A stretch of 64,000 nt of DNA from Myxococcales bacterium UBA1238. Lineage in GTDB: Bacteria; Myxococcota_A; Bradymonadia; UBA7976; UBA1532. Numbering within the stretch: position 1 is the first letter of the stretch; every line of letters starts with the position of its first letter. Shown piece by piece: positions 434-52,174 of the stretch. Position numbers and translations under genes: made by a program. The notes below the pieces were generated by a model. It was not told the DNA's origin. It searched no databases and saw only the letters and a program-made list of their open reading frames with translations. The DNA lies in the NCBI GenBank assembly GCA_002309015.1, contig DBWM01000012.1:16638-80637 (forward strand). Reading direction: 5' to 3'.

Positions 434-458
434 TACGCAGTCCTTTCCCGAGCGATGT

Positions 459-8444: not shown

Positions 8445-8459
8445 CCTCTCATTGTTGCA

Positions 8460-8488
8460 CATATAAGTTACAACAAAACGCGCAGCAA
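8460..8488 (-). promoter_or_regulatory. candidate sigma70-type promoter for module A
   Basis: Read on the minus strand: TTGCTG, 17-nt spacer, TATATG. Lies about 15-20 nt upstream of the ATG at 8444, in the 94-nt gap after obg. Confidence 0.25.
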
Positions 8489-8538
8489 AAACGAGCATAC
8501 GCAATTGAGGAGAAAATGGGGGAAGAAAAAGGAAGGAA

Positions 8539-9802
<1,264 letters not shown>

Positions 9803-13079: not shown

Positions 13080-13081
13080 TT

Positions 13082-18397: not shown

Positions 18398-18427
18398 ATT
18401 TTCTCCAATAGAATTAATGGGTTAAAC

Positions 18428-29392: not shown

Positions 29393-29418
29393 CCGAGCAA
29401 AACTGAACCGAGCAAAAT

Positions 29419-30486: not shown

Positions 30487-30642
30487 AAACCGAATCCTCT
30501 CCCCCGAAACCGCGCATTCTCCCTCCTTTTGAGTTCAAAGAGCCTCCCATTCCCTAAAAATGCCATTCTCCCGGCATAAAAGTTTCGCGCAGCTCAACTT
30601 GCCGTTAAGATCCCCCCAATTTTTCAAAAAAGGGAACAGCCG

Positions 30643-31854
30643 ATGGCCGATTGGATGTGGGAAGGCAGAACGCGTACCGGTGAAGCGCGCAAAGGGGTGA
30701 TGGATGCGGAGACGGAGGAGGAAGTTCAGCAGCGCCTGCGCCAGCAAAACATCATTCCCGACAAGATTCAGAAGAAGGCGAAAGGATTTACGATTTCGCT
30801 GCCGGGGATGGGCGGAAGCGTCAAATCGCAGGAGCTCGTCATCTTTGTGCGCCAGTTTGCCACCATGATCGACGCCGGTTTGCCGCTGGTGCAATGCCTC
30901 GACATCCTCGCCTCGCAGGAAGAGAACAAATACTTCCAAAAGATTTTGTACGAGGTGAAACAAAACGTCGAAGGCGGCTCCACCTTTGCCGACGCCCTGC
31001 GCAAATACCCCAAGGTATTCGATACGCTGTTTGTAAACCTGATCGCCGCAGGCGAAATCGGCGGTATCCTCGACACCATCCTGAACCGACTCGCCTCTTA
31101 CATCGAGCGCAACGTCAAAATCGTACGCCAGGTGAAAGGCGCCATGACCTACCCCATCGCCATCCTGGTGATCTGCGTTTTGATCACCTCCGGCTTGCTC
31201 AAATGGGTGGTCCCCACCTTCGCTTCGATGTTCCAGGACATGGGCGGCGATATGCCCGCGCTCACCGCTTACGTGATCAAAACCTCGGAATGGTTCCAAG
31301 AATACTTTTTATATGTTTTTGGAATCATCGTCGCACTACTCATCATTTTTATCAAAACCATCCGCACCGAAAAGGGGCGCCGCGCCTTCGACAAAATCCT
31401 GCTCAAATCGCCGCTCATCGGCAACGTGCTGCGCAAAAGCGCCGTGGCCAAGTTTACGCGTACCTTTGGCACCATGATCTCCTCGGGCGTGCCGATTTTG
31501 GACGGCCTCGACATCGTCGCCAAAGCCGCCGGCAACTACGTGATCCAGGATGCGATTTTATATGCGCGCACCAAGGTCTCCGAAGGCAGCAACCTGGCGC
31601 CCCCGCTCGAAGAGACCGGCGTTTTCCCGGGCATGGTGATGCAGATGATCGCCGTGGGCGAAAGCACCGGCGCCATGGACGTGATGCTTCAAAAGATTGC
31701 CGATTTTTATGAAGAGGAAGCGGAGCTCGCCATCGCGAGCATGACCAAGATGATGGAGCCCCTGATGATGGTGTTCATCGGCGGCATCGCGGGAACCATC
31801 GTAATTTCAATGTATTTGCCCATTTTCTCGATGGCTGGCAACGTCCAGACCTGA
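30643..31854 (+). CDS. pilC: type IV pilus platform protein PilC (GspF family)
   Basis: 403 aa with two GspF repeats (FTRQFATMIDAGLPL-like FVRQFATMIDAGLPLVQCL and FTRTFGTMISSGVPILDGL) and 3 TM segments. Confidence 0.95.
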   Translation: MADWMWEGRTRTGEARKGVMDAETEEEVQQRLRQQNIIPDKIQKKAKGFTISLPGMGGSVKSQELVIFVRQFATMIDAGLPLVQCLDILASQEENKYFQKILYEVKQNVEGGSTFADALRKYPKVFDTLFVNLIAAGEIGGILDTILNRLASYIERNVKIVRQVKGAMTYPIAILVICVLITSGLLKWVVPTFASMFQDMGGDMPALTAYVIKTSEWFQEYFLYVFGIIVALLIIFIKTIRTEKGRRAFDKILLKSPLIGNVLRKSAVAKFTRTFGTMISSGVPILDGLDIVAKAAGNYVIQDAILYARTKVSEGSNLAPPLEETGVFPGMVMQMIAVGESTGAMDVMLQKIADFYEEEAELAIASMTKMMEPLMMVFIGGIAGTIVISMYLPIFSMAGNVQT

Positions 31855-31866
31855 TGGAATGCGCGC

Positions 31867-33465
31867 ATGTCGCAGAATGCAGCCCTCAATTTAGGCCGCC
31901 TGATCCGCCTGATGGCGGTGCGCGTCGCGCTGATCACCCTCCTTTTAGGCTCAACGCTGCTGTTTGATGTTTTTGGCCGGGAGCCGCTGAACGCCCACAC
32001 CCAGTTCCCGATTCTCTTTTTAATCATCGGTACTTACGTTTTAACGCTGATTCACGCGTTTTTGCTGCACCGCTTTCCACTGCGGCTCCGTTTTTTGGCG
32101 GCGTTGCAGATCCTTGGGGATTTGGTGCTCTCAGCGGCGGTCATCTACATCACGGGCGGAGCCGAGAGCCCCTATTTATTTTTATGGGCACTCACGGTGC
32201 TCTCTGCGAGCCTGCTCTTTGGACGCAGAGGAGGTCTCTCTATCGCTTTTTTAGCGATCCTGCTGCTCATCCTGCTTACCGTTCAGCGCATCATCGCCTG
32301 GAACGCATTGCCGGCTCCAAGCATCGAGATCTTACGGCGACTGCTGGTCAACGCGATCACCCATATGACGGCGATCCTGCTCATCGGCCTGCTTTCAGGC
32401 TATCTGAGCGATCAGCTGCGCGCCACAAACCAGCAACTGCGCTTTGCAAACCGCGATCTGGCCCAGTTAGAGGCTTTAAACCAACAGATCCTCACATCCA
32501 TTCGCAGCGGGCTATTAAGCTATCGCAGCGATTTTACAGTCCTTTTTGCAAATCCAGCCGCATTGCAGCTGCTCGGGCTCACCCTTCAGGAGCTCACGGC
32601 CGAACCGATCATCAAGCGGTTTCCCAAGCTGGAACATGCAGAGACTACAGACTGGGAGGAATCTTATCCCACGCCCGACGGGGAGCGCATTTTACAATTC
32701 AGCCTTTCGCCGCTCGATGCGCCCGATGCACCGGGAGGTTGGATCCTGAGCCTCCACGATCAAACGCGCCTGCGTCAAATGGAGCAACAGGCCGAGCGCA
32801 GTTCGAGGCTCGCCGCCATCGGCAAGATGGCCGCAGGGATCGCCCACGAGATCCGCAATCCCTTAGCCGCCATCAGCGGCAGCATTCAAATGCTGAACGA
32901 TCTCGCAGCCCCCGATTCGCTCGAACTCAAACTGAGCGGCATCATTCACCGCGAAGCGGAGCGCTTAAACCATCTGGTCACCGATTTTTTGCGCCTCGCC
33001 CGCCCTGCGCCTCCCCAAAAAGCGCGCTTTAACGCCCGCATCTGGCTCGAAGAGATCGCCTCTTTATTTAAATCCGAAGCGAACGGCATCACATTCACGC
33101 TCGATTGCCCGGGAGATGCGATGGTCGAAGCCGACGGCGAACAGCTGAGGCAGGTGATCTGGAACCTGCTCAAAAACGCAGCCGAGGCGCGCGCAACCCA
33201 AATCACCTTAAAATGCGAGGCGTTACCCCACGAGGCGCGCCTTTGCTTCACCGACGACGGATCCGGCATTCCGCCCGACATCCAAAAGAAAATCTTCGAT
33301 CCCTTTTACACCACAAAAGACACGGGCAGCGGCCTCGGTTTGGCGGTCGTTCACCGCATTGTGGAGGAGCATGGCGGTCAAATCGAGCTGCAATCAATGC
33401 CCCACCACACGCAGTTTACGGTGCATTTACCCATTTCCCCTATCGCCCCAAAGGAGCCAGCATGA
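31867..33465 (+). CDS. pilS: polytopic sensor histidine kinase PilS
   Basis: About 6 N-terminal TM helices, a PAS-like segment, H-box HEIRNPLAAISGS, N box NLLKNAAEA and G box DDGSGI...GSGLGL. Confidence 0.85.
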   Translation: MSQNAALNLGRLIRLMAVRVALITLLLGSTLLFDVFGREPLNAHTQFPILFLIIGTYVLTLIHAFLLHRFPLRLRFLAALQILGDLVLSAAVIYITGGAESPYLFLWALTVLSASLLFGRRGGLSIAFLAILLLILLTVQRIIAWNALPAPSIEILRRLLVNAITHMTAILLIGLLSGYLSDQLRATNQQLRFANRDLAQLEALNQQILTSIRSGLLSYRSDFTVLFANPAALQLLGLTLQELTAEPIIKRFPKLEHAETTDWEESYPTPDGERILQFSLSPLDAPDAPGGWILSLHDQTRLRQMEQQAERSSRLAAIGKMAAGIAHEIRNPLAAISGSIQMLNDLAAPDSLELKLSGIIHREAERLNHLVTDFLRLARPAPPQKARFNARIWLEEIASLFKSEANGITFTLDCPGDAMVEADGEQLRQVIWNLLKNAAEARATQITLKCEALPHEARLCFTDDGSGIPPDIQKKIFDPFYTTKDTGSGLGLAVVHRIVEEHGGQIELQSMPHHTQFTVHLPISPIAPKEPA

Positions 33466-34862
33466 GCCGCATTCTGGTCATCGACGACGAGCTTTCGATG
33501 CGAGAAATGCTCGAAATCTTTTTTGAACGCGAAGGTCACCAGGTCACTTGCGTCTCGGACGGCCAGCAGGGCATTGCCGCACTGCAGGAAGCTTGCTTCG
33601 ACATGGTGATCACCGATTTGCGAATGCCCAACTGCGGCGGCATGCAGGTGCTCGAATATTGTCAGGAAAATTACCCCGACGTGCCCGTGATCGTAATGAC
33701 CGCCTTTGCGAGCACCGACACCGCCATCACCGCCATGAAGCTCGGCGCCTGCGATTACTTCACAAAACCCTTTAAACTCGACCAGGTGCGCACGGTCATC
33801 GACGACGCTCTGGAACGCCGCAAGATCGTGCTCGAAAGCCGCGCCGCGCGAACCAGCCTCTCCGCCGATCCCTCCGGGCATATCGTGGGCCAAAGCCCCG
33901 CCATGCTCGCGCTCTTCAACATGATCGCCCGCATCGCCAAAACCCGCACCAGCATTTTGATTCTAGGCGAAAGCGGTACCGGAAAAGAGCTCATCGCCCG
34001 CGCCATCCACGCCCAAAGCGACCGAAAAGAAAAGGGATTTTACGTAGTCAACTGCGGTGCCATTCCCGAAAACCTGATCGAAAGCGAGCTCTTTGGTCAC
34101 AAAAAAGGCAGCTTCACCGGCGCCCTTTCGGATCACGTGGGGCTCTTTCAGGCAGCCGACGGCGGTACCCTGTTTTTGGATGAAGTCAGCGAGCTGCCGC
34201 TCTCGATGCAGGTCAAACTCCTCCGCGCCCTGCAGGAACGCAAGATCAAGCCCATCGGCGAAACCCGCGAGCTGCCCGTCAACGTGCGCGTGATCAGCGC
34301 CACCAACCGCGATCTCGAAGCCGAGGTCAAAGCGGGCCGATTCCGCGAGGATCTGTATTACCGCTTAAACGTGATCGCCCTCGAATTGCCACCCCTGCGC
34401 GATCGCCCGGCCGACATTCCCCTTTTGGCGCAACATTTTCTGAAGCGCTTTGCCGCCGACTACCAGAAGCCGGTGACCGATTTTGAGCCCTCGGCCCTCC
34501 ATGCGCTCAGGCGCTACGCGTTCCCGGGCAACGTGCGCGAACTGCAGAATCTTGTGGAGCGGGCGGTCGCCCTCGAAGAGGGACAAAAATTGTCCCTAAA
34601 GAGTTTTCCAAAGTCAATTCAAGAAATTGCGCGTCCCATCACGACATCGCTGCCGCCATTGCCCATCATCGAATGGAATCAGAGCGAGACGGGCTTAAAC
34701 CTCGAAGAGGCGGTCGATGCGGTGGAACGCCGCTTAATTTCACAGGCGCTGGAGCAAACCGAAGGCAAAAAGAAAGCCGCCGCACGCCTTTTGGGCATCA
34801 CGTTCCGTTCGCTCCGCTATCGCCTTCAAAAACTCGACATCAAGGCAGACGATGAAGAATAG
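33462..34862 (+). CDS. pilR: sigma54-dependent response regulator PilR (NtrC family)
   Basis: ATG 33462 overlaps the pilS stop (ATGA). [10 protein letters not shown] receiver, AAA+ [14 protein letters not shown] (GAFTGA-type sigma54 contact loop) and a C-terminal HTH. The track extension from 33105 overlaps pilS in another frame. Confidence 0.93.
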
Positions 34863-34900
34863 CCCATCCACAAACAGCACCGCTAATGGTGCCAAAATTT

Positions 34901-34911
34901 GTCACTGTGAC
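34901..34911 (+). promoter_or_regulatory. candidate enhancer (UAS) palindrome for the sigma54 activator
   Basis: Perfect palindrome GTCAC-T-GTGAC with a third GGTCAC half-site at 34918..34923, about 60-70 nt upstream of the -24 element. Confidence 0.35.
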
Positions 34912-34968
34912 GCAAAGGGTCACCCCCAGACCGAGTCCAAAATCCGCACGACATCATGGACTCAAAGT

Positions 34969-34984
34969 TGGCACGCTTCTTGCA
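34969..34984 (+). promoter_or_regulatory. sigma54 (-24/-12) promoter of the pilin genes
   Basis: TGGCACGCTTCTTGCA is an exact fit to TGGCAC-N5-TTGCA, about 33 nt upstream of ATG 35017. Confidence 0.85.
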
Positions 34985-35016
34985 TTAAGGATAGGCGTGT
35001 AGCGAAAGGATACTCA

Positions 35017-35523
35017 ATGACGCGAAACGCGCGAGCGCAGCAAAGGGGCATGACGCTCATCGAACTGATGATCGTCGTCGTGATCCTGAGCGTGCTCTCA
35101 CTGGTCGCCATGAGCGCTTACGAGCGTTACATCTATTCCGCACGCAATGCCGAAGCGGTTCAAATGCTCGGCGCCGTGCGGGTCGCTCAGGAAACGTACT
35201 TTGAATCCTTTGGCCAATATTGCGGCAGCAGTACGGTCGCAGTCTGGCCCACATCGGTGCCCTTTTCGGTCAAGCTTCCCTGGGATACGCCTCCCGAAGG
35301 CAACGCCTGGCGCGATTTGGGCTTAAAGACGCCGGGACAAGTCTGGTTCCAGTACCAGCTTTCCGCAGGCGCCAAAAACGGCAGCTCGTCCATCTTTTTA
35401 GACACGACGAAACCGTGGTTCTGGGCGCGCGCAGTCGGCGATTTTGACGGCAACGGCGCTCAATCGACGTTTGAAATCACCTCGCAAAGCGACGAGGTCT
35501 ACAGTTACAACCGAAATCGTTAG
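35017..35523 (+). CDS. type IV pilin-like protein (minor or alternative pilin, Met at +1)
   Basis: 168 aa from ATG 35017 with AAGGA upstream. Prepilin signal [38 protein letters not shown]. Confidence 0.8.
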   Translation: MTRNARAQQRGMTLIELMIVVVILSVLSLVAMSAYERYIYSARNAEAVQMLGAVRVAQETYFESFGQYCGSSTVAVWPTSVPFSVKLPWDTPPEGNAWRDLGLKTPGQVWFQYQLSAGAKNGSSSIFLDTTKPWFWARAVGDFDGNGAQSTFEITSQSDEVYSYNRNR

Positions 35524-35602
35524 GTTTCACTTTTTTTTCAGAGCCGTAGGGCTCAATTTCTAAAACCGACCGTTAAGGTCACAAACATTTGGAGTTTTTA
35601 CC

Positions 35603-36172
35603 ATGCGTAAGACCAACAAAAAGCCCTCCGGCTTCACCCTGATCGAGCTCATGATCGTCGTCGCCATCATCGGCATCCTGGCCGCCGTCGCCATCCCGGC
35701 CTTCATGAAGTACATCCGCCGCTCCAAGACCACCGAAGCGACCATGAACATCCGCAAGATGTTCGACAGCTCCGTGACATATTTCTCGGATGAGCACAGC
35801 GATCGCAGCGGAAACGCAATCGATCGCCAATTCCCCAAGACTCAGGCTAGAACACCTGGTAATCCTTCAGACTCAGATATGATGTGCCCCGGTGGTAGCT
35901 CCAGGAAATATACTCCTGAGAAGACCGGAAAAGATAGCATTTGGGCTACCGAAACTTGGAATGCCTTGAACTTTGCCATCGACGATCCTTTCTACTATGC
36001 ATATAGCTATGATAGCAAAGGCGTTGGCCACAATTCTCAATTCACCGCCCGTGCAGAAGGCGACCTCGACTGCAATGAGACTTTGTCTCTCTTCGAGCGC
36101 GTTGCTACCGTTGACGATCGTAACAACGTCGTCGGTGGTGCGGGCCTCTACATTGCCAACGAACTCGAGTAA
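35603..36172 (+). CDS. pilA: major type IV pilin PilA
   Basis: [46 protein letters not shown] with GGAG RBS. Sits at the pilA position after pilS-pilR. The C-terminal half has lower G+C than the N-terminal helix region. Confidence 0.9.
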
Positions 36173-37730: not shown

Positions 37731-39851
37731 TCACTCATCATAGCGTATTACCCCACTCGTTTCTTCTATATATTGTTCAATCACGTCATCAAGCAAATCG
37801 CTGCGGATGATTCCATATAAGTTCGAACTATCATCGGTATCCAATTGATAAGTCAAACTTTTGCCAAAGCTTGCGCGATCAATCACGAGCTTATGAACAC
37901 CATCAAATGCAGCAATGCGATCAATAGCAAGAGGTTTATCCACAGATATTAAGACTGCTTCAGAAATAAGCGAACGTTTCTTCGGCATCATTTGTAAAGG
38001 AATCGCATCAATATTGGCTGGACACTCAATCCCAAACCAATGGAGAATCGTCGGAAACAAATCGATCAGACTTACAAGTTCACTTGCTTCTTCTGCAGGC
38101 AAATCATGCGATTTCACGATCAAAGGAATCCGAATCTGTTCTTCTGAAACATCTGTTCCATGATAATGCCATGCTTTACCAAAATGTTCGCCATGATCTG
38201 CTGCAACCACGATTTTTAAATGTTCATAGTTTTCCAATCTTTCCAACTCATTCAAAAAACGATTGATTTGCATATCCGCATAGAGAAGTGCATGATCATA
38301 TTGATCCATAAGACTTTTACCAAACTGCTCCACATCTTTGCGAATAACATTTGGCCAATGAGGTCCTGAAAGATGAATCCATAGAAAAAACCTTTGACTT
38401 TGAGGATGCTTTGATAACTGCGCGATCGCTCTGTCAATGGTTTCCGCATCTCCACGCGACGATTTCACTCGATCATATTGACTAAATCCTTTGTTATAAC
38501 CGAATCGGGGATCAAACAATTCACCTTCAGAATCATCCAAAACAGCGATCGTATAAACGCTGTTGTTTCTCAATATCTCTGTTCAAACAGGTCTCGAATC
38601 ATCAGCAGGAATTTCTGCCATATGAATCACATGTACTTTTGAATTTGCATTCACTTCTTCTTCTGTAAGAAGCTCGTATTGATCCGTTTCATATAATTTT
38701 TTCCACAGAATCCTTCTTGGGTAAATTCCGCGCAATAGGGACGGAATCGCGAGGGAGGTCATCGCGCCACTCGTGTATGCCCGCTTATATACTCTCGCAT
38801 TTTGGGCAAACCGTTTGAGATTGGGCGTGGTCTCGCGGTCGTAGCCGTAGACGCTCATGTGATCGGGCCTTGTGGCGTCGATGGTGATCAGAACGACGCT
38901 GGTTTGATCGGCATCCTCTGCGGGTGAGAGCGAAATCGGTGCTTTGGCTGCGGGTTTGGGAACGTAGTCGCCGCGAATGCAGTTGTTGTCTACACCGTCG
39001 TTTGGGATTTCGCGCGCTCTCGGATGAATGGCGGCGTTAAAAGGCGCGCAGTCGCCGCCACCCCAGAGGCTTGAGGCACCGTCAAAGTCGAAGTCGGTCG
39101 AAATGCGCACGGATTGAAGCAGACTCGATGGCAAGGGCGCCTGAATCAGCGACCATAAGGCGCCCTGGTGAGAAGCTGTGCAGAGCCATGCGGAGACTAA
39201 AATCCCGCCTGAAATCAGGCCCGTGCAAATGCGGCCGTATCGCAAACGGAAGTGCGGGCATAAGAGCACGAATCCCGAACAACCGACCGCAAGTCCCAGG
39301 GTTCTGAGCAGCAAATGGACATCCAAATAGAGACCGACCAAAAGATGGGCGTCCAGATAAAACGCAATCCCAGCCGATGCGATCAGCAACGCGCCAAAAA
39401 TCAGCCGCAATGGGCGACGATGCCCGAGTAACCCCATCGGCTTTGTTTGGGTTGGCTGCAGGAGCGCACCCCATGCAGCGATCAGAATCGCGAGCAACAG
39501 ACAGCCCAGCGCCGCCTTTTGCGCCAGTGCAAATTGTTTATCCCCTAAATGACCTGTAATATTTAAAGAGGTAAATATCCAACTCGCAGCAATGGCACCG
39601 GGTAAAATCCAAAACGTGCGTACGAGCAGCGAAGATTTTGAAGCCGCGCGAAGTCCGCAGCATAAGCCCCCAATCAGAAGCCCAATCGCTCCGCCCCCCA
39701 CGAGTCCCAGACCACAGCCCGCAACCGTTGCGCGAATCCCTGCGGATACCACCAAGAGCTCGATCACACAGATGAGAGCCCCCCACAATGCGCCCCAAAA
39801 CACAAAGGGCCCCACCGTAAACCCACGGGATTCTTCCTGCGTTTTCAACAT
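37731..39851 (-). pseudogene. membrane-anchored sulfatase/alkaline-phosphatase-superfamily gene split by one in-frame TGA
   Basis: ORFs 38583..39851 and 37731..38573 are in the same frame, separated only by TGA (38583..38585) and 3 codons. Joined, they are colinear with the intact paralog 57845..60037: multi-TM N-terminus, GGDC...NGVDNNC motif, IDATRPDHMSVYGY, then ...AADHGEHFG. Confidence 0.75.
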
Positions 39852-43149: not shown

Positions 43150-43171
43150 AAAAAAAGCCCCATTGCGGGGC
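43150..43171 (-). terminator. intrinsic terminator closing module B
   Basis: Minus strand: GCCCC, GCAAT, GGGGC, followed by TTTTTTT. Lies 22 nt after the stop at 43193. Confidence 0.75.
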
Positions 43172-43192
43172 TTTAATTCAGATCGTGAGATC

Positions 43193-45025
43193 TTATTCCG
43201 CCGTGAAGGTGAAGGGGTAGTTGACGGTCACGCTGCCGCCACCCTTGGGCTCGGGGAACTGCCAGGATTTGACCTGGGTACGCAAGCATTGTTCCACGTT
43301 GGCGTTCTTCATGGTGGATTCGGGGATTTCTACGCGGAGCACCTTACCGTTGGGACCGATGGTGAACTTGACGACGATCTTACCGGCCAGGTCGCGCTTT
43401 TGTTGCAACTCTTTGTTGTAGCAGTTACGCGTTGCGTTGGCGTGCTTCTGAACCACACGACGAATCTGATCGGGTGACAACGACCCCTGGACGGTGGGTT
43501 TACCGGGCACAAATTTGGGACCGCTGCCGGTTTTATGCTTGAGCTGTGTGTTTCCGTATCCCGTTCCGGTTCCCGATCCGCCGCGTCCGTGCGTACCGAT
43601 GGCACCGATACCGATGGAGTTGGTCCCCAAACCGCCTCCACCAAAGCCGGATCCCGCCATGCCGAGTCCGCCAAAGCCGCCGGATTCTCCGATTTGATTG
43701 CCAAACATGTTGCCGAATGCGTTGACGGCGTCGGAGCCGATGGTACGGTCACCGCTGCCCCAAATCGCCGAAAGCTGACCTTCGATGTTGGCCACAGCCG
43801 CGCTCGCCGATGCGATGGCGGCGGTCTTCATCTGCTGCTTGGCGAATTGGATCTCCTGGTTGTTGGCCGGGCCGGCAATACCTGCGCGCTTTCCGGTATC
43901 GGGCGCATCCTTTTTGCCCATCTTCCCTTCTTCACCTTTGGCCGCCGCCGCGACCTCCGGTTCGGGTTCTTTTTCAAGCTCATTCAGCAAATCGGTGAGT
44001 TTCTGACTCTTTTCGCGCAGCTCCTCTTCGGGAATCACCAGGAATTCCACGAAGCGGTCGTTCAGATTGAACCCATCGATCTTCAGGCTGTCCGCTTCTT
44101 TGGGCACGCTGAGCACGATGCCGAAAAACAGCGCGTGCATCAGGATCGCGATGCAGAGATATTTGAAGAAGGTCAGATCGAGGCTCTTTAAAAAGCTCGT
44201 CTGCCCCATCGGAGGCGGAGGCGGCACCGAGTTGACGAGCAGCGTGATGTTCCCAAAATGCAGACGGCAACGCGTGTTCGGCAGCATCTTGAGGGTACGG
44301 GAACCATTACGGGATTCCCCCATCCGACCGCTCGAACGCAATTCGTCGATGGTCTCCACCTTGCCGTCGCTCATCACCTCGCCCGCGATCTTATCGGGCA
44401 CGTGAACCGCCATCTGGCGGCCATCGGTTACGGCAAGCGTAAAAGGTGTTTGCGGCAAAAAAGACGCATCGATGAACTGATCGATCTGCTTGGCCAGCTT
44501 TTTGCCCTGAGAAGTCTTCATTAACTGCTCAGGCACTTCGCCCACCACAAAATCATGTGCAGACGAATAATGCTGCACGTCGAGCACCGTCGATTCCCAC
44601 AGCGTTAAAATCTCAAGCGTTCGCGCATTGGGATTTCTGGGATCGACCTCCTCGTCGAACAGCGGCGCATTGACCGTCTTTCGCTCATTCGGCGATTTCT
44701 TGCGTCCAGGTTGTCCGGCAATCGTCATCACCACCTTGACGTTACCGAACGCCAGCTGATCGCCCGACTTGATGGCCCGCTTTGAGGTGACCCGCTCGCC
44801 GTTCACGAACGTACCACCCGCGCTCCCTAAATCGACCAACAAAACCGTACGCTCATCCTGCACTTCGATCATCGCGTGGACGCGCGCGACGCTCTCATCG
44901 TCGAGCCGCAAGTGCGAGGTGGTGAGCTTACCGATCTTGATCGTCTTCTCGGCCAGAACTTCAGTTCGCTGAAGCTGACCCCCCTGATAAATTTCAAATT
45001 TGATCGGAGTCTTCGCGCTGTCCAT
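43193..45025 (-). CDS. FHA + TM + Gly-rich linker + TonB_C protein (GltG/PglI-like)
   Basis: ATG 45025 with GGGAGA RBS. FHA core IKIGKLTTSHLRLDDESVARVHAMIEV...LLVDLGSAGGTFVNGERV. TM FFKYLCIAILMHALFFGIVLSV. Charged coil, then a Gly-rich tract GGFGGLGMAGSGFGGGGLG. C-terminal TonB-type VVKFTIGPNGKVLRVEI...VTVNYPFTF. Confidence 0.85.
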   Translation of the reverse strand: MDSAKTPIKFEIYQGGQLQRTEVLAEKTIKIGKLTTSHLRLDDESVARVHAMIEVQDERTVLLVDLGSAGGTFVNGERVTSKRAIKSGDQLAFGNVKVVMTIAGQPGRKKSPNERKTVNAPLFDEEVDPRNPNARTLEILTLWESTVLDVQHYSSAHDFVVGEVPEQLMKTSQGKKLAKQIDQFIDASFLPQTPFTLAVTDGRQMAVHVPDKIAGEVMSDGKVETIDELRSSGRMGESRNGSRTLKMLPNTRCRLHFGNITLLVNSVPPPPPMGQTSFLKSLDLTFFKYLCIAILMHALFFGIVLSVPKEADSLKIDGFNLNDRFVEFLVIPEEELREKSQKLTDLLNELEKEPEPEVAAAAKGEEGKMGKKDAPDTGKRAGIAGPANNQEIQFAKQQMKTAAIASASAAVANIEGQLSAIWGSGDRTIGSDAVNAFGNMFGNQIGESGGFGGLGMAGSGFGGGGLGTNSIGIGAIGTHGRGGSGTGTGYGNTQLKHKTGSGPKFVPGKPTVQGSLSPDQIRRVVQKHANATRNCYNKELQQKRDLAGKIVVKFTIGPNGKVLRVEIPESTMKNANVEQCLRTQVKSWQFPEPKGGGSVTVNYPFTFTAE

Positions 45026-45102
45026 GTCATCTCCCTGCCGAGCAGCACAGGCTTTTGAGGCTCGAAGCAAAGCCGCTCAGTTGCCCGGGCGGCTGTCACA
45101 AA

Positions 45103-45378
45103 TCAAATATCTTGAGCTGATTTCAACATCTCGGGAGTAAAGTTTTCCCGAATGTGAATCAGACTTGAGTACGTATGTCCCCGGTGCCCCGTCAGGTGAT
45201 CGCCATCCGGACGCATGATTTCGCCGTTCAGCTCATCACCGTCCATGTTCATTTCCTGATTTGCCTGATAGCAAATATTGGGATCATTGGGATCCGGGAA
45301 CGTCCCTTCAGGGCAAGCCGCCCATCCAACAACAGGAGTTACCACAAAAGCTAACATCAAGGCCCATTTATTCATCAT
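45103..45378 (-). CDS. small secreted protein (GltF position, module B)
   Basis: About 90 aa. GGAGG lies 3-6 nt before the tandem ATGs (45378, 45375). Signal MNKWALMLAFVVTPVVGWAAC (possible lipobox). C-terminal IRENFTPEMLKSAQ motif shared with the 188..433 protein. Confidence 0.65.
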   Translation of the reverse strand: MMNKWALMLAFVVTPVVGWAACPEGTFPDPNDPNICYQANQEMNMDGDELNGEIMRPDGDHLTGHRGHTYSSLIHIRENFTPEMLKSAQDI

Positions 45379-45500
45379 CAACCTCCGTGCAACGTCGTTA
45401 CAGTATCATCGACCTTCGCAAGCTGTCCAGCGGTCGATTGAAGCCATCCTTCAGGCCCCAAAATCTGCTTTTACCTCTCGCATCGAGGAGCAAAAAACTT

Positions 45501-46823
45501 TTATTCTGAGCCAGCTTCCGCGCCACCGGATTCCGCGCCACCGGATTCCGCACCACCAGACGGATTCGAGGCCGCTTCAGCTTCCATTTGCTTGCGCATC
45601 GCCTCGTCGTCCGCGAGATCCTGAATCATGTAACCGCACATTTCGATGCGCTCACGCAACATCTTTTTCATGCTCGAATCGCTGGTGAGGGTCTGCGCCT
45701 TTTTATAAAGATCCATCGCTTCCTGAGGCTTACTCAAAAAATCCTGATACAGCAAGCCCAGGTTGAAATTCGCCGCAAAATGTTGTGGATCTTTTGCGAG
45801 GACCGCTTTGTAACCGCTCTCCGCTTCAGGATAATTCTCCATCGCGCGCGCCGTCACGGCCTTCGAGAGCATCGCGTCCAGATTCTCGGGCTCCACCTTC
45901 AGCGCAGTTTCGAAGGCGTTGTAGGCAAACTCGTAATCGCGGTGACCGTAAGCGAGCGACCCCGCATTCAAAAGCGCCGGAACGTAGTTGGGATCAGCCT
46001 CGATCGCCTTGCTAAACTCTTGAAATGCAAACGAAAATTGTTCCTGAGCCAAAAAGACCAGGCCGTGCATATTGTGCAGCGAAGCGAGCGAGTTATCGAA
46101 CGAAAGCCCCGATCGGCAGACCATCTCCGCCAGATCGTAGCGCTTCATGTCGTAATAGATTTTGGCCAAAACCTCGTACGCCTGAGCGTTCTGGCTGTCG
46201 CCGGTCAACGCCTTGCGCACCTTTTCAACCGCCGAGGGGTAATCCTTCTGAGCGCGCGCAAACAGCGCCTGATTCAGGTTGGCAGCGCCCGATAACGGCT
46301 GAACCTGCAAGGCTTTTTCAAAATATTTTTTAGCCTCGGCCTCATTGCCTTCCGCAAGGTAATGCGCACCGATCGCCGCCAGACCGTCACCGAACTCTTT
46401 GCCCTTCTCGGACGATTTTTCAAAATACTCGGCAGCGTCCTTCCATTTGCCCGCAGAAGCGCTCAAAATCCCCAGATTATACCAAGCCTCACCTACCTCG
46501 GGATTCTCTTTGACGATCGCCTTCAGGATAGACGCCGCATCCTCATCGCGACCTTCCTTATGGGCCGTCATCGCCGCTCTGAATTGCGTATGCAGGCCCG
46601 CTTCTTCCTTCGACATCGCGTTGAGGGCGGAATCCGTGGAAGGCGCGGTGGAACCCACCGAAACAGCTGGGTTTTCGGTGCCGTCCTCAGGCGGTGTCAC
46701 GGTCGTTTGAGCACCACCGCAGGCGTTCAGGCTAAGGGCTGCAAGCGTCCCCAAAGAAACGCGGCCAGCTGCAAATTTCACGCTCTGTAGCCATCGATTC
46801 TGGTGAAAATGCATCGCGATCAC
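45501..46823 (-). CDS. TPR-repeat lipoprotein with acidic repeat tail (GltE/AglT-like, module B)
   Basis: 440 aa. Lipobox LSLNAC. About 8 TPR units. C-terminal GGAESGGAESGGAEAGSE. GTG start overlaps the upstream stop (GTGA); the alternative is ATG 46814. Confidence 0.85.
   Translation of the reverse strand: MIAMHFHQNRWLQSVKFAAGRVSLGTLAALSLNACGGAQTTVTPPEDGTENPAVSVGSTAPSTDSALNAMSKEEAGLHTQFRAAMTAHKEGRDEDAASILKAIVKENPEVGEAWYNLGILSASAGKWKDAAEYFEKSSEKGKEFGDGLAAIGAHYLAEGNEAEAKKYFEKALQVQPLSGAANLNQALFARAQKDYPSAVEKVRKALTGDSQNAQAYEVLAKIYYDMKRYDLAEMVCRSGLSFDNSLASLHNMHGLVFLAQEQFSFAFQEFSKAIEADPNYVPALLNAGSLAYGHRDYEFAYNAFETALKVEPENLDAMLSKAVTARAMENYPEAESGYKAVLAKDPQHFAANFNLGLLYQDFLSKPQEAMDLYKKAQTLTSDSSMKKMLRERIEMCGYMIQDLADDEAMRKQMEAEAASNPSGGAESGGAESGGAEAGSE
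45516..45560. repeat. 3 x 15-bp tandem repeat inside the gltE-like 3' end
   Basis: TTCCGCGCCACCGGA twice, then TTCCGCACCACCAGA. Encodes the SGGAE repeats. Confidence 0.9.
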
Positions 46824-49800
46824 TCCGCTGCTTCCTGAGTCACAGCCGCTTCATCGATGGGCAGCGCCGCGATATACGGACGCGTGACCCGATCGGGGCT
46901 AAAGTGAACCGGTTTGGTAAGGATATCGGGGCTGTATCGGTAAACTTCGGGCTTTAACTGCGCCAACTCTTTGCCGGCAATTTCGGACCATTTGTTGGCC
47001 CATTTTTGCTGGCGCGCAATATCAAGGCAGTTCTCATAGCCGTTAATGGCCAAAGTCGTAGGCTGCTCCGCAAGCTTGACCATCTCGTTCTTAAAGGCCT
47101 CAGCCGCTTCTTCAAACTGGCTGAATTCCCTGGGGGCCTCAAGGTTATAAATATCCTGCGCGATTTGCTGCTGCATCTGACCGATGCGCACAGAAGCCGC
47201 CATCGACCAGTTGATGGCACCGATTTCGAGCACTTCGCGATACATCACGTCCACCGCGTTGGCCGCCTTGTTGCGGTTCACGATGCCTTCCTGCATGTCC
47301 TTGATGTATTTTTCAAGCCCTCTAACCTTGGGTAATTTAAGCGGATTTCTTCTAAACGCCTCGTAAGCGATTTCGGCTTGCTTAAACCGGGCTTCCGAGA
47401 TCGCCTCGCGTCCGCGCTTACCCAGCTTTTGTCGCTCATCGTTGTTGAGGCTCTTATAATAGTTATAAGCCGCATCGTATTGTTCACGAGACGCTTTTTC
47501 GTTCTTTGGACCGCCGCGCTGATGGAAGGCGTTGCCGTAATGCGCATAAACGGCAAGCACCAGATCGGGGGTTGCATATTTCTTATATTTGCGCAGGAAT
47601 TCCGCATAGTGATCGCAGGCCTGGTACCATTTCTCCTGGAGCTCCATGACCTGCCCGATGTTGAAATGCGCTTCAGCCGCCTTGGCTTTATCGGAGCCTA
47701 CCAAAGAGATGTAAGCCCGCGAATCTTCAATGGCTTTTGCGTATTGACCGAGTCCCTTGCGGAAGCCGGCCGCGCGCTCCAGCGCCTTCTGCGCCTCCTC
47801 TTTATCGGGGAAGTTGGCCGCATACACTTCATAGGCCTCGGAAGCCTCGGAGTAAGTCGCCAAATCCTCTTTATTTGCGGCAATCTGGAACAACGCCTTC
47901 GGCACCAGTTCCGAACCCGATACCTCCTGGATCATCTCCATGCGGACGGCGATCGCGCGATCGATGTTGCGCATGCGCTCGTAGTTGGCCGCCGAGTTGT
48001 AATAGGCTTTATCTACGAATTCCGAGTTCTTAAAATGATGCGCATATCGATAGTAACAACGCGCAGCTTCCAGGTAATCGTGACGCCCTTCAAAGGCACC
48101 GCAGCGCTTGAAGTTGGCCTGACGCTTGTAACTGTTCAATTCCTTATTGAATTGCGCATCGCGCGACGGCGTGTAGATGGGCAGGAACGTCTCGACCTGG
48201 GCGTTGAAGCTGTCGTAATCCTTGGTCAGGTTATACGTATCGAGCAACAGGTTTGCGGCAAACACAGCCTGGGCGTGATTGGGATGCTTTTCCGAGATTT
48301 CCTTGAAGATCGGGATCGCTTTATCAAAATGGTTATTATCGTAATAAAGCTTGGCAACGGAGTACTTAATCTCGATCAGATCGTCACCGTCCGGCACATA
48401 TTGCGAGTAAACTTCCGTGGCCTCAATATAACTCTTTTGAACTTCAGACAGTTCCTTCGGCTCGGGAATCGTCGCTTCCGCACCTTCTGAAAGCAGGCCG
48501 TCGTCCTTCTTGTCATCCTTCTTTTTGCCGCCCTTCTTCTTGTCCTTTTGAGCCGCCGCGATCTCCGCATTTTGCTGATCGATCAGGATGTTCTGATACG
48601 ACGTCACCATGTTGTAAGCCGCTTCCTTCTTGGTCTCCTCATCGGGATCCGATTTCAGAACACGGCCATAGGTTTGAGCTGCAAGTTCCCATCGCTCTAA
48701 GCGAAATGCCAGGTTTGCAGTGTTATACAGCGCGATCGCCAGATGGGGGCTGTCGGGGAAGATGTCGAGGTAATCCACGTAAAGATCGAGCGCGTTCTGG
48801 TACTCTTTTTTGCTCTTATTCTTCTCGGCCAGCGCGTACTGCTCTTCAGCCATCTTGCGCACCAGCGACTCGATCACCTCTTGATCCTGCGACACCTGAG
48901 CAGGCGTAGCGTCGGGCAATTCCTTTGCGGTTCGCCAAAGCTTGGCCAGCTCCTTCACGTCGTTGACCGCCAGAGACTGCTGACCGATCGTGGTGGAATT
49001 CGACACGATCTTAATCTGGAAGGTCATCGCCTTATAGGTGTTGGGATAGAGCTTAATGAGCTCGCGGTACATCGCATTCGATTGCGCAAGTTGGCCGGTA
49101 TCAATGTATTTTATCGCCAGCTGTTCAGAAAGCGCTAAATAATCGTTGGGCGCAATCGACTTAAAAAACGCGATGGTCTTTGCGGGATTGTTGTTGTCGG
49201 TGTTGACGTAAACGGTCACCAAATCGCGCGTCGCTTCCTTCTTGCGGGTCAGGCGCGCTTTGCCGCCCTGGGAATTCAGCTTGTTGGCGTGATTGATCAC
49301 CTCGACGAAGGTGTCGAGCGCATCCTGATATTGACCTTTGTTATAATAACACCAGCCCAGCTTGTGCAGAGCCAGGTTATAAAGATCAGACTCGCGGTAG
49401 TCGGTGGTCACCTTGCGATAAAACACCGTCGCGTTGGGAATATCGCCCGCATCAAAATAAATCTCACCCAGGTTATAGAGCGCATCGGGGATATGCGGGG
49501 AATCCGGGTGATTCTGAATCAGGAAAACATAGAATTTCTGCGCATTTTCGGTCTCGCCCTTTTGCTGGTAATCGAAACCGAGGGCGAACAAAACGCGGTC
49601 TATATTTTCATAGTTTGGATATTGCTGCGCAATATAGCGGTAAATTTCCTGAGATTTTGCGCCATCCGTCTTTTTGATCTGCTCCAGGCGCGCGTTGTAG
49701 CGCTCTTCGCATTTGGCCAGCGCAGCGTCGTCATCCATGGAGCGCTCAAGACAGGCCGTATGCTCATCGCTCGCCTTGATTTCTTCATTCTCAGCGCGCT

Positions 49801-50014
49801 TTGCATAAAGCTCCGACAAACGGAAATAGAGCTCAGGCTTCTTGGGATCCGTTTCGGGCGTCATCTGGATCAGGCGTTGAAGGCCGTTAAAGACCTCCTC
49901 ATTTTTCTGCTCAAGCTGAGCGCTCTGCTGAGCATTCGCCGCCCCACAAAAAACTGCAGATGCGAAAACCGCGCGCATTACGCCGCGCCATGCACCCCTT
50001 CTCATCGACCGCAC
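46820..50014 (-). CDS. very large secreted TPR protein (GltD/AgmU-like, module B)
   Basis: 1064-aa ORF. Signal ...MRAVFASAVFCGAANA. TPR-like repeats throughout, plus a Lys-rich insert KDKKKGGKKKDDKKDD. The in-frame ATG at 50005 forms an ATGA overlap with the upstream stop and may be the true start. Confidence 0.85.
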   Translation of the reverse strand: MRSMRRGAWRGVMRAVFASAVFCGAANAQQSAQLEQKNEEVFNGLQRLIQMTPETDPKKPELYFRLSELYAKRAENEEIKASDEHTACLERSMDDDAALAKCEERYNARLEQIKKTDGAKSQEIYRYIAQQYPNYENIDRVLFALGFDYQQKGETENAQKFYVFLIQNHPDSPHIPDALYNLGEIYFDAGDIPNATVFYRKVTTDYRESDLYNLALHKLGWCYYNKGQYQDALDTFVEVINHANKLNSQGGKARLTRKKEATRDLVTVYVNTDNNNPAKTIAFFKSIAPNDYLALSEQLAIKYIDTGQLAQSNAMYRELIKLYPNTYKAMTFQIKIVSNSTTIGQQSLAVNDVKELAKLWRTAKELPDATPAQVSQDQEVIESLVRKMAEEQYALAEKNKSKKEYQNALDLYVDYLDIFPDSPHLAIALYNTANLAFRLERWELAAQTYGRVLKSDPDEETKKEAAYNMVTSYQNILIDQQNAEIAAAQKDKKKGGKKKDDKKDDGLLSEGAEATIPEPKELSEVQKSYIEATEVYSQYVPDGDDLIEIKYSVAKLYYDNNHFDKAIPIFKEISEKHPNHAQAVFAANLLLDTYNLTKDYDSFNAQVETFLPIYTPSRDAQFNKELNSYKRQANFKRCGAFEGRHDYLEAARCYYRYAHHFKNSEFVDKAYYNSAANYERMRNIDRAIAVRMEMIQEVSGSELVPKALFQIAANKEDLATYSEASEAYEVYAANFPDKEEAQKALERAAGFRKGLGQYAKAIEDSRAYISLVGSDKAKAAEAHFNIGQVMELQEKWYQACDHYAEFLRKYKKYATPDLVLAVYAHYGNAFHQRGGPKNEKASREQYDAAYNYYKSLNNDERQKLGKRGREAISEARFKQAEIAYEAFRRNPLKLPKVRGLEKYIKDMQEGIVNRNKAANAVDVMYREVLEIGAINWSMAASVRIGQMQQQIAQDIYNLEAPREFSQFEEAAEAFKNEMVKLAEQPTTLAINGYENCLDIARQQKWANKWSEIAGKELAQLKPEVYRYSPDILTKPVHFSPDRVTRPYIAALPIDEAAVTQEAAE

Positions 50015-51561
50015 TCCGATTTGATCGTGTAAAGGTAATAGCCCAGTTCATCGCGCCAGAATTCGCCGGTAAAGGGCCAATAAATATGCTCATCGTCCGT
50101 TGCATAGACCGGTCCGGACGAAGTGGAATGGTTGATAAATCCAGCTGCGCGCATCGGATTTTCGAGATTGACCGCTTCCGCCGTCAGAATTTCGATCTCG
50201 ATCTTTTGCGCCTGGCTGAGCAAATCGTTCAGTTCGTTTACGACGCCCTGAAGCTGCTGCTGGGTCAGACGGCCCGCTTCGGCCACACCGTAGGAGCGCA
50301 CGAACTCGGTATCCGACAAAATCTCTTCTGCCAGCTGACTCTTGGACCAGGAAGACTTGGAGCTCGTGATCAGATCCTTTTCGCGATCGAGCTCGCGCAT
50401 ATAGGCGTTCAGCCGCTTCAGGGATTTATCCTGGAAGGCGGCGTTGAGGATCTGCTGCACGCGCGGCGAAATCGCCTCACCGGAATCCTGCATCTTGTTG
50501 AGATAGTTGTAGAGCTCGACGGGATCCTCGTAACTGGCGATGTAGCCTTGAATTTCGTCGCGCAGAGGCTCGTAGGTGGCACGGAATTCGTTCAAAGCAT
50601 CGCGCGCTTTTTCGTAATTGCAGTTCGAGAAGAAAATCACCGCCTTCAAAATGCCCGCTTCAGGCACATATTCATCGGTAAAGAACGACGAACCGAGGGT
50701 CAGCAGGTTGCCGAGCGCCTTCTCGTGGTTGTTCATGCGGAAGAAGGTCCAGCTCGCCTCAAAGAGCGCGTCGAGCCAGAGCGGGCTGTCGAGTGGAATC
50801 GAGTCGTAATACTGCACCGCCTGCGGGAATGCGTTCATGCCGTAGTAAATACGGGCGATCGACAAAGTGGCTAACTGGCTGAAATACTTCATATCTTCGG
50901 TCAGTTGCGAGCTTCCCTTGGCGGCTTCAATCAGCTGCTTGAACACCGCGATCGACGGCTGAGGATAGCCCTGGCGCATCAGGGTCATCCCTTCAAGGAA
51001 TTTGGCCTTTGGGAAGTAACGGCTGCCCGCATCCACCTGACGCAGGAATTCGATCGAATGGGGCAAATCGCCTTGCTGGTAGTGATATTGCCCGATCAGG
51101 AACGCGAGCTCAGAACGGAAATCCGCCGGACAATCGTCGGGACGATATTTCACGATCTTTTCGAGCATCGTCGAGTCGCCCGAAATCTTTCGCGACAGGT
51201 AATAGAGCCACTTACAGGTTGCGCGATAATAGCGATGCTCCGGCCCCGCCTCGACCACGCGCCCGAAATACGTCATTGAAGCCTGATAAAGCCCCAGACG
51301 GTAAAGGGTTTTGCCCAACGAATATTCGGACTTCTGCTCCGCTGGCGACACCGCGATTTCGTTACGAGTCACAATCTTGTGCAAGATCAAGCTCGCTCTC
51401 AAAAAGTCTTTGCGCTTGTAAGCGCGCTGCGCTTCGTTGAGATCTTGCTTGGTGGCTTTCTCTGCATCGACATCGATCGGCGCAAAATCGAAATCTTGGG
51501 CAGAAGCACAGAGAGGCGCTAACGTTAGAATCGACAAAAGAAAACGGCGAAGAAAGGGCAT
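50002..51561 (-). CDS. secreted TPR protein (GltC-like position, module B)
   Basis: ATG 51561 with GGAGGGG RBS gives 519 aa starting MPFLRRFLLSILTLAPLCASA. Shares motif blocks with the 5557..7785 protein. The 132-codon upstream extension in the track lacks a signal peptide and an RBS. Confidence 0.8.
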   Translation of the reverse strand: MPFLRRFLLSILTLAPLCASAQDFDFAPIDVDAEKATKQDLNEAQRAYKRKDFLRASLILHKIVTRNEIAVSPAEQKSEYSLGKTLYRLGLYQASMTYFGRVVEAGPEHRYYRATCKWLYYLSRKISGDSTMLEKIVKYRPDDCPADFRSELAFLIGQYHYQQGDLPHSIEFLRQVDAGSRYFPKAKFLEGMTLMRQGYPQPSIAVFKQLIEAAKGSSQLTEDMKYFSQLATLSIARIYYGMNAFPQAVQYYDSIPLDSPLWLDALFEASWTFFRMNNHEKALGNLLTLGSSFFTDEYVPEAGILKAVIFFSNCNYEKARDALNEFRATYEPLRDEIQGYIASYEDPVELYNYLNKMQDSGEAISPRVQQILNAAFQDKSLKRLNAYMRELDREKDLITSSKSSWSKSQLAEEILSDTEFVRSYGVAEAGRLTQQQLQGVVNELNDLLSQAQKIEIEILTAEAVNLENPMRAAGFINHSTSSGPVYATDDEHIYWPFTGEFWRDELGYYLYTIKSECGR

Positions 51562-51754
51562 ATTCCCCTCCAAGGCGAATTGTGAGAGCCGTTCAAAAGG
51601 TACCCCCAAAATGAGAAGTTTCGTATACCTTTGCCATCCGCAGAACGCAAACCAAATCAGGCACAAAAGCGGATGAACGCATCTCTTGCTCAAATGGCGC
51701 CAACCGCGTAAGGTAAATCGATTGTTTGAACTGCGCTCGCTGCTGGAGGCAACC

Positions 51755-52174
51755 ATGCGTCTCTTTTTTGCTGTCACAACCGCTCCCGCAACCCTCGCCA
51801 CCGCATTTTTCGGGCTCGTTTTAAGCGTTGCCGGTTGCGACACTGGTTTTGGCCAACCCTGCAATATTCCTGAAAATATTTCGCTTTGCGAAGGCACCAA
51901 GACCGATGTTGAAGATGGAGGCGTCATGACCGAAACGAGTGCCTCATGCGCCATCAACCAATACGCACGCTGCGAAACAAAAATCTGCCTGACCTATAAA
52001 GGCTCAGACGCTTTTTGCAGCATCGCCTGCATCAACGACGACGATTGCCCAGGAAAAGCCCTGTGCAAGCCGATCATCGGTGGAGACGACAACAGCGGCA
52101 TCAACCCCTGCGAGCCTTCTGACGCCGGCTTCACGCCCGAATGCTACTGCGTCAAAGCGAGCGCGCTTCAATAA
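51755..52174 (+). CDS. Cys-rich lipoprotein
   Basis: ATG 51755 with GGAGG. Lipobox LSVAGC. 12 further Cys in about 110 mature residues (for example CINDDDCPGKALC). Divergent from module B. Confidence 0.7.
   Translation: MRLFFAVTTAPATLATAFFGLVLSVAGCDTGFGQPCNIPENISLCEGTKTDVEDGGVMTETSASCAINQYARCETKICLTYKGSDAFCSIACINDDDCPGKALCKPIIGGDDNSGINPCEPSDAGFTPECYCVKASALQ

Follow-up and report, generated by a model that had tools for sequence, protein, structure and literature searches.

A reduced gltC-D-E-F-G-like operon of a Bradymonadia-type lineage within the Glt/Nfs superfamily

A 64,000-nucleotide stretch of the genome of the uncultured Myxococcales bacterium UBA1238 (contig DBWM01000012.1; hereafter the window) carries five co-directional minus-strand genes that run from 51561 to 43193 in the order C-D-E-F-G and that we call Module B (Table 1). 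Their products are true homologues of GltC, GltD, GltE, GltF and GltG, and the operon almost certainly belongs to the Glt/Nfs superfamily. Within this known superfamily it represents a third, Bradymonadia-type lineage, in reduced form. Judged by synteny and phylogeny, it is the orthologue of a K-C-D-E-F-G-T-I cluster that occupies the same chromosomal position in Bradymonadia-related Myxococcota; the window lineage no longer has the T gene and the giant GltI-like gene adjoining gltG. The operon is under purifying selection. We consider it probable that Module B and a divergent lipoprotein gene beside it encode the force-transducing middle of a trans-envelope machine of the Agl-Glt/Nfs family, with gliding as its likeliest output.

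Table 1. The operon and its flanking elements (window coordinates; TPR, tetratricopeptide repeat; TM, transmembrane; RBS, ribosome-binding site)
Feature	Position	Strand	Details
Cys-rich lipoprotein gene	51755..52174	+	139 aa, lipobox LSVAGC; divergent from gltC-like
Divergent intergenic region, K-like gene/gltC-like	51562..51754	.	Contains gltC RBS GGAGGGG
gltC-like, secreted TPR protein, 519 aa	50002..51561	-	NCBIfam GltC 393 bits
gltD-like, giant secreted TPR protein, 1061 aa	46820..50005	-	BLASTP to bona fide GltD
gltE-like, TPR lipoprotein, 440 aa	45501..46823	-	NCBIfam GltE 120 bits
gltF-like, small secreted protein, 90 aa	45103..45375	-	NCBIfam CglF (=GltF) 47 bits
gltG-like, FHA-second beta domain-TM helix-Gly-rich linker-TonB-C-like, 610 aa	43193..45025	-	NCBIfam GltG 364 bits
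Intrinsic terminator closing the operon	43154..43174	-	Hairpin AAAGCCCCGCAATGGGGCTTT then T-run

Operon structure and identity of the five proteins

An earlier note, made from the sequence alone, had described a five-gene operon with an RBS-supported start, two 4-nt overlaps and a terminator at 43150..43171, and this layout was borne out. All five frames were found. GGAGGGG precedes the gltC-like ATG at 51561, the gltD-like ATG at 50005 overlaps the gltC-like stop (ATGA), and the gltE-like GTG at 46823 overlaps the gltD-like stop (GTGA). The terminator, AAAGCCCCGCAATGGGGCTTT followed by a T-run at 43174-43154, has 9 pairs and is the strongest hairpin of the region. It begins 19 nt past the gltG-like stop; taken as a whole, the region has no more terminator-like patterns than expected by chance. 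The next gene beyond it is a convergent murB, ending at 42745. Besides the window, the same organism is represented by an NCBI metagenome-assembled genome (MAG; GCA_016648615.1) and by assemblies from two SRA runs. The gltG-terminator-murB junction is identical in three independent assemblies, which excludes a misassembly. Independent gene callers gave 519, 1061, 437/440, 90 and 610 aa in the three other assemblies, and all five reading frames are intact in four assemblies. Because a sigma-70 scan of 51562..51754 found no consensus promoter, we only infer that the promoter or promoters presumably lie in this divergent region. An Rfam search of the window gave no match.

The architectures read from the translations and from Pfam agree with the earlier description, and TPR, FHA and TonB_C domains were all recovered by the profile search. 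TPR repeats are present in C, D and E; F has no Pfam family. Signal peptides were read from the translations of C (ending in CASA, before QD), D and F, and the gltE-like protein carries the lipobox LNAC and ends in an acidic, Gly-rich tail. The gltF-like protein has 90 aa, or 92 aa if translated from a TTG. For the gltD-like protein, the earlier estimate of about 1060 aa holds: the start is most likely the ATG, giving the 1061 aa called in the public assemblies of the same organism, while a length of 1064 aa depends on an upstream GTG.

Three control loci provided reference scores for the NCBIfam models. The E, F, G and H proteins of a D-E-F-G-H-I cluster on a 1.5-Mb contig (L005) scored above their equivalog cut-offs (409, 104, 702 and 128 bits), which identifies the models named 'CglF' and 'CglE' as GltF and GltH. 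A second locus (L052) passes the equivalog cut-offs for GltC and CglC. The third (L062) is the M. xanthus nfsA-H operon, recognised by gene order and by the sizes 294/439/520/.../682, using the nfs gene sizes in Table 3 of PMC2875238. The gltC-like protein matched the GltC model over residues 22-517 without reaching the cut-off of 450 bits (M. xanthus NfsC, 209 bits; Anaeromyxobacteraceae GltC, 538 bits). The gltE-like protein matched the GltE model over residues 27-416, below the cut-off of 225 (NfsE, 123 bits; bona fide GltE, 409 bits), and the gltF-like protein matched the CglF model with E 2e-12, below the cut-off of 90 (NfsF, 68 bits; bona fide GltF, 104 bits). A C-terminal motif, RPDG...SSLIxIRENFxPEMLKS, is common to the gltF-like protein, GltF, NfsF and the Bdellovibrio-type and Bradymonadales homologues. 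The gltG-like score falls short of the GltG cut-off of 650 bits (NfsG, 338 bits); the same protein passes the AgmX/PglI C-terminal domain model (117 bits, cut-off 40).

NCBIfam offers no corresponding test for D. The bona fide GltD of L005 matches only YbgF-type TPR there, from which it follows that NCBIfam has no GltD model and that a missing Glt match for D is uninformative. By BLASTP the gltD-like protein is 26-28% identical to bona fide GltD over about 1000 aa (E 1e-77 and 2e-87), with E values of 5e-64 to NfsD and 5e-38 to the paralogue in Module A, a second gene set in the window described below. Its nearest non-self database homologues, at 40-42% identity, come from Bradymonadia/Myxococcota MAGs.

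Both giant TPR proteins of the window (46820..50005 and 2006..5560) exceed the NCBIfam YbgF/CpoB equivalog cut-off (118 and 153 versus 90 bits). Such matches could mislead automatic annotation, and related database proteins are named 'TolA-binding protein'. The possibility that Module B is a Tol-Pal accessory set, made of CpoB/YbgF-like TPR proteins and a TolA/TonB-like protein, had been raised in the earlier note. It draws on the YbgF score of the gltD-like protein (TIGR02795) and on the TonB_C domain of the gltG-like protein. However, the YbgF match is made through repeated TPR units, in three stretches, and bona fide GltD and the Module A paralogue match likewise. The full-length best matches are Glt/Nfs proteins, and no tolQRAB-pal genes are adjacent. 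CpoB is a protein of ~260 aa encoded in a tolQRAB-pal operon; given a protein of 1061 aa with no tol-pal genes nearby, a Tol-Pal/CpoB identity is effectively refuted.

Reciprocal comparisons were made with bona fide Glt proteins (L005, L044, L052), M. xanthus Nfs proteins (L062) and Bdellovibrio-type proteins. The best window match of every bona fide Glt protein was the corresponding Module B gene and the converse was also true; reciprocal best hits held for all components, with Module A always second best. The Module B proteins are about as distant from Glt as the Nfs paralogues are, and nearer for C. Homology to GltC, GltD, GltE, GltF and GltG, the identity proposed in the earlier note, thus follows from the top NCBIfam families (GltC, GltE, CglF and GltG), the D alignment of ~1000 residues, the reciprocal best hits and the three-domain model of the gltG-like protein. 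All five proteins have many homologues elsewhere in the same gene order, an arrangement far beyond chance.

The gltG-like protein has an FHA domain at residues 29-94 (Pfam, E 1e-15) and a TonB_C domain at 542-608 (E 1e-6), and a PDB profile search returned FHA domains (E 1e-14) and TonB C-terminal domains (E 1e-3). An AlphaFold2 model contains confident domains at residues 1-105, 131-270 and 501-610 and a TM helix at 284-306. In order, these are the FHA domain, a second beta domain adjoining the TM helix on its N-terminal side, and the TonB-C-like domain; the same three have been reported for GltG (PMC11761067). Foldseek matched the model to FHA folds (TM-score 0.8-0.89); since the N-terminal FHA domain accounts for most of the entries, they do not independently confirm the central domain's fold. 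The TM helix (ILMHALFF, residues about 284-306) contains a conserved His that the window clade and Bradymonadales homologues have in common and that Myxococcaceae-type GltG/NfsG lack. This residue resembles the essential His of the TonB/TolA SHLS motif.

Relatives, gene neighbourhood and selection

Scanning one genome per species gave 553 GltG-like stretches, and the best 80 loci were mapped. Among these best 80, C-D-E-F-G occurs in that order at at least 60 loci, in several architectures. A-B-C-D-E-F-G-H is the Nfs arrangement of Myxococcaceae and Archangiaceae, D-E-F-G-H-I is the G1 glt cluster, and A-C-D-E-F-G(-H) is found in the Bdellovibrio type and some MAGs. The architecture C-D-E-F-G-T-I, which includes Lujinxingia and Persicimonas, adds a ~290-aa TPR protein (T) and a ~4000-aa protein (I) that aligns colinearly with bona fide GltI along about 1980 aa (E 6e-110). 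The nearest database homologues of the organism's proteins are 40-53% identical and labelled Bradymonadia, Myxococcales or Myxococcota. Our literature searches found no description of the Bradymonadia-type cluster with its K gene; Bradymonadia motility was discussed there only as pili. Variants were seen at single loci. One Bradymonadia MAG (L003, 12018..13478) has an extra GltG-like paralogue without FHA between gltG and T, and L012 has gltF-gltG without C-D-E upstream. A cluster with C-D-E-F-G only (L030) is the only locus of 85 with TolQ/ExbD-like genes within 10 kb; they lie ~6 kb downstream of gltG, at about 17976..19135.

A tree of concatenated D+E+G proteins (neighbour-joining only; 60 loci, 1953 columns, 100 bootstraps) separates Glt-G1, Nfs, the Bdellovibrio type and the A-C-D-E-F-G type from the C-D-E-F-G(-T-I) types with 100% support. 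Module B falls outside both the Glt and the Nfs clades; this analysis, which the earlier note had suggested, places it in the Bradymonadia-type lineage as sister (bootstrap 100) to 14 C-D-E-F-G-T-I clusters from Bradymonadia-like MAGs. An upstream rimM-trmD-rplS-rnhB-yraN block and the divergent lipoprotein gene are common to the window and 13 of the 14 sister clusters, which makes the orthology secure. T and GltI-like genes follow gltG at all 14 sister loci and in Lujinxingia and Persicimonas. The window is the sole clade member without genes following gltG, and the terminator and convergent murB stand there instead.

This loss could mean that Module B is a decaying remnant, no longer part of a working machine after losing T, the GltI-like gene and perhaps other parts. 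Its branch is also long (0.58 versus about 0.1-0.35 in the sisters). However, the branch length matches the divergence of housekeeping proteins. The Glt-like proteins are 35-62% identical to the sister clade (C 55-62%, G 44-50%, D 40-42%), in line with 53-75% for flanking housekeeping proteins (TrmD 58-67%, RplS 66-75%). We also compared the locus with a 5.4-kb metagenomic contig of a close relative (95-99% identical; K-like gene 95%), which covers the K-like gene and the first 282 gltC codons. The ratio of nonsynonymous to synonymous substitution rates (dN/dS) is 0.07 for this part of gltC and 0.25 for the K-like gene, with 0.12-0.14 for yraN and rnhB. With the frames intact in four assemblies and the stop/start overlaps and RBS preserved, decay is improbable, and T and I may lie elsewhere in the genome.

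The divergent gene at 51755-52174, missed by the earlier note, encodes a conserved Cys-rich lipoprotein and lies 193 bp upstream of gltC-like. At about 30 loci, of several different architectures, an iterative search located homologues of it directly before gltC or gltA-gltC. The CglC (=GltK) model gave no direct match to the window lipoprotein or its library relatives: the window-clade profile finds 95 library clusters, and 93 sequences were scanned against the model. An intermediate is provided by the lipoprotein of an Anaeromyxobacteraceae glt cluster, which passes the NCBIfam CglC equivalog cut-off (87.6 versus 60 bits) and whose gene lies upstream of a gene for an OMP_myx_plus barrel domain and a GltC above its own equivalog cut-off. 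The 93-sequence lipoprotein family profile aligned with this CglC by hhalign at 90% probability (E 2e-6), whereas the profile of the window clade by itself matched it with no better than E 0.05; the pattern of Cys residues is conserved. Since the link depends on one intermediate sequence, hhalign, the Cys pattern and gene position, we treat the protein as a candidate only, and probably a CglC/GltK-like outer-membrane lipoprotein.

Comparison with known systems and possible function

In M. xanthus the Agl-Glt genes are found in clusters G1 (gltD-J), G2 (gltK-B-A-C) and M1 (aglRQS). Module B resembles them in protein size (window/M. xanthus: C 519/673, D 1061/1191, E 440/471, F 90/89, G 610/640 aa), in signal peptides and lipobox, in the FHA-TM-TonB-C-like layout with its second cytoplasmic beta domain, in D-E-F-G order and in the nearby CglC/GltK-like candidate. 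It differs in that gltC and the K-like gene adjoin gltD-G rather than forming a separate G2 cluster, in having no gltH/I/J after gltG and no gltA/B or aglRQS in the window, in lying across the 100%-supported split from the G1 clade, and in scoring below all equivalog cut-offs. The Bdellovibrio-type clusters (A-C-D-E-F-G-H) share the contiguous C-D-E-F-G including gltF, and their BLAST scores to window C, D and G exceed those of M. xanthus Glt or Nfs. Unlike the window they have a gltA-like barrel before C and gltH after G, and they belong to the other major clade. The gliding candidate of Bdellovibrio is Bd0828-0838 (Luciano et al., 2011; PMC3169522).

The earlier note had offered two readings of the operon, a minimal ancestral core or one part of a dispersed machine. 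The ancestral 'core complex' (Group B gltC/D/E/G plus aglRQS; Gammaproteobacteria, Geobacter, Fibrobacter) has four glt genes that are all present in the window. However, its operon includes aglRQS and has no gltF, and the window is the reverse, which sets Module B apart from the minimal core. Luciano et al. (2011; PMC3169522) list gltF with the genes found only in Myxococcales and Bdellovibrionales. The presence of gltF and of the K-like gene, and the placement of the operon within a group of GltI-bearing clusters, mean that Module B is not a minimal ancestral core; of the two readings the second stands, and the operon is one part of a dispersed or reduced machine.

We looked for the remaining machine parts in the window. 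As the earlier note had stated, there is no TolQR-type motor: no MotA_ExbB or ExbD domain was found in window open reading frames (ORFs) of at least 150 aa (Pfam and NCBIfam), and phmmer with approximate E. coli TolQ/TolR/ExbD query sequences gave no match in the 64 kb. The absence of gltA/B/H and mglA given in the earlier note also stood. GltA, GltB and GltH barrels were not found in the window by hidden Markov models (HMMs) built from 20, 13 and 22 sequences, nor were OMP_myx_plus barrels or MglA, and GltH, GltI and T had no matches anywhere in it. The earlier note's claim that gltK is absent is doubtful in view of the candidate at 51755-52174. Two ORFs were considered as GltH/A/B, a beta-barrel-like ORF of 184 aa at 25061-25615 and one of 274 aa upstream of Module A; neither has NCBIfam or custom-HMM support.

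No GltJ was confirmed in the 64 kb. Downstream of pcrA/uvrD, two adjacent zinc-ribbon proteins are encoded at 11283..14158 (-). One, of 598 aa, has Zn_ribbon_4 and TPR, and the similarity of its ribbon to the zinc ribbon of GltJ (PDB 7ZOK) does not go beyond E 0.013. The other, of 358 aa, has an N-terminal CxxC...CxxC ribbon and one TM helix and belongs to no Pfam or PDB family. We do not claim 13082-14158 as a GltJ-like ZnR-GYF-TM protein, since Pfam and PDB show only a generic zinc ribbon; a GltJ-like role for the pair is speculative.

By analogy with M. xanthus, Module B likely acts as a motor-coupled transducer. Two-hybrid data show an AglR-GltG interaction, and GltD localisation depends on AglQ and GltF/G/H (PMC3169522). 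In an AlphaFold model of GltC-D-E-F-G-J, GltD is the central pillar, the GltG linker wraps GltD, GltE sits on the C-terminal part of GltD, and GltF bridges GltG and GltC (PMC11761067). If these contacts carry over, the GltG-like protein would reside in the inner membrane with its FHA domains in the cytoplasm and its TonB-C-like domain in the periplasm. Through its TM helix it would be coupled to an AglRQS-like stator, a proton-driven motor of TolQR type whose genes would lie elsewhere in the genome, and it would attach to the GltD-like TPR pillar by its long periplasmic linker and C-terminal domain. The GltE-like protein would bind GltD, the GltF-like protein would bridge GltG/GltD to the GltC-like protein, and the latter would contact an outer-membrane platform to which the CglC/GltK-like lipoprotein may belong. 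The operon would thus supply the inner-membrane anchor and a periplasmic TPR scaffold carrying force from the stator to the outer-membrane platform. The TonB-ExbBD and TolA-TolQR systems offer a parallel in the single TM helix, the long flexible periplasmic linker, the TonB-C-like domain and the clade-specific TM His of the GltG-like protein. They differ from it in its two cytoplasmic FHA-type domains, its Gly-rich rather than Pro-rich linker, its TPR partners and the lack of adjacent ExbBD/TolQR.

As to output, gliding-type surface motility is possible, and we place it close to an even call. It is the most likely output because the orthologous clusters carry the gliding-specific GltI and because cultured Bradymonadales have been reported to glide (PMC7188933). 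Several observations weigh against it. The reported gliding was attributed to type IV pili, and a pil cluster is present in the window. All four NCBIfam Glt equivalog cut-offs were missed (393 against 450, 120 against 225, 47 against 90 and 364 against 650 bits), and Glt and Nfs are equally far from the operon. The window lacks the GltI-like gene that all sister clusters carry; with it, the AglRQS motor, the GltA/B/H barrels, GltJ and MglA are all absent from the 64 kb. GltI and GltJ are essential for M. xanthus gliding.

The missing adjacent GltI-like gene and the equal distance to Nfs leave room for a role outside motility. The same motor-driven scaffold could serve Nfs-like transport or assembly of a surface polymer (spore coat, capsule), or another envelope task like that of the uncharacterised M. 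xanthus G4/G5 paralogues or of the 'core complex' of non-gliding bacteria. The contiguous C-D-E-F-G in one operon is the nfs arrangement, the F motif is shared, and on the Glt models the scores of window E and G are level with those of NfsE and NfsG. Paralogous clusters with non-motility roles are known (Luciano et al.; PMC3169522). In contrast, Module B lies outside the Nfs clade, and its orthologues carry the GltI-like gene, which Nfs lacks. No nfsA/B barrels lie upstream, where yraN/rnhB and the K-like gene are found, and no nfsH lies downstream, where murB is found. Window C is far closer to GltC than NfsC is (393 versus 209 bits), and no sporulation or polysaccharide-export genes flank the operon. 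We therefore regard a non-gliding use as rather unlikely and retain gliding as the favoured output.

Other genes of the window and significance

Module A, at 188..8606 (-), is a second, very divergent paralogous set that encodes a GltC-like protein (742 aa), a TPR protein (1184 aa), a GltE-like protein (516 aa) and a GltF-like protein (81 aa). The last, a secreted and previously unlisted ORF at 188..433, matches NfsF with E 3e-5 and shares the VEGxLxKPE motif. Ahead of the set lies a gene for a secreted coiled-coil/beta protein of 274 aa without a family; after the set, the window contains no GltG-like gene. A type IV pilus cluster at 27695..36172 (+) contains pilB-pilT-pilC-pilS-pilR and two pilin genes (pilA) in a Myxococcus-like order; this cluster and Module B, both surface-motility gene sets, are less than 20 kb apart. 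A sulfatase at 37731..39851 (-) is split into frames of 422 and 280 aa in the window and in the two SRA-run assemblies and is a single 706-aa gene in the NCBI MAG, which reflects a frameshift, strain variation or an assembly error. The stretch at 36-38 kb near it has the lowest GC content of the window (0.435).

The locus is a conserved, reduced relative of a known system, not new in kind, and will not surprise a specialist. The Agl-Glt machine, the reference system for focal-adhesion gliding in bacteria, may have arisen from an uncharacterised core. The locus contributes a C-D-E-F-G unit that is sharply bounded and maintained by selection. It comes from a deep Bradymonadia-related lineage in which gltC and a K-like lipoprotein gene remain beside gltD-G, and from an organism that lost or moved its GltI-like scaffold gene. 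It is conceivable, if unlikely, that the contiguous K-C-D-E-F-G-T-I cluster represents a third functional lineage that keeps the unsplit ancestral gliding layout, with the window organism as a natural 'minimal' derivative that would manage with no adjacent GltI, or with none at all. If so, a derivative without the GltI scaffold would show which machine parts are dispensable. The locus can serve comparative reconstruction and guide the choice of a cultured member of the Bradymonadales for testing whether these predators glide by a Glt-type motor and not by pili alone.

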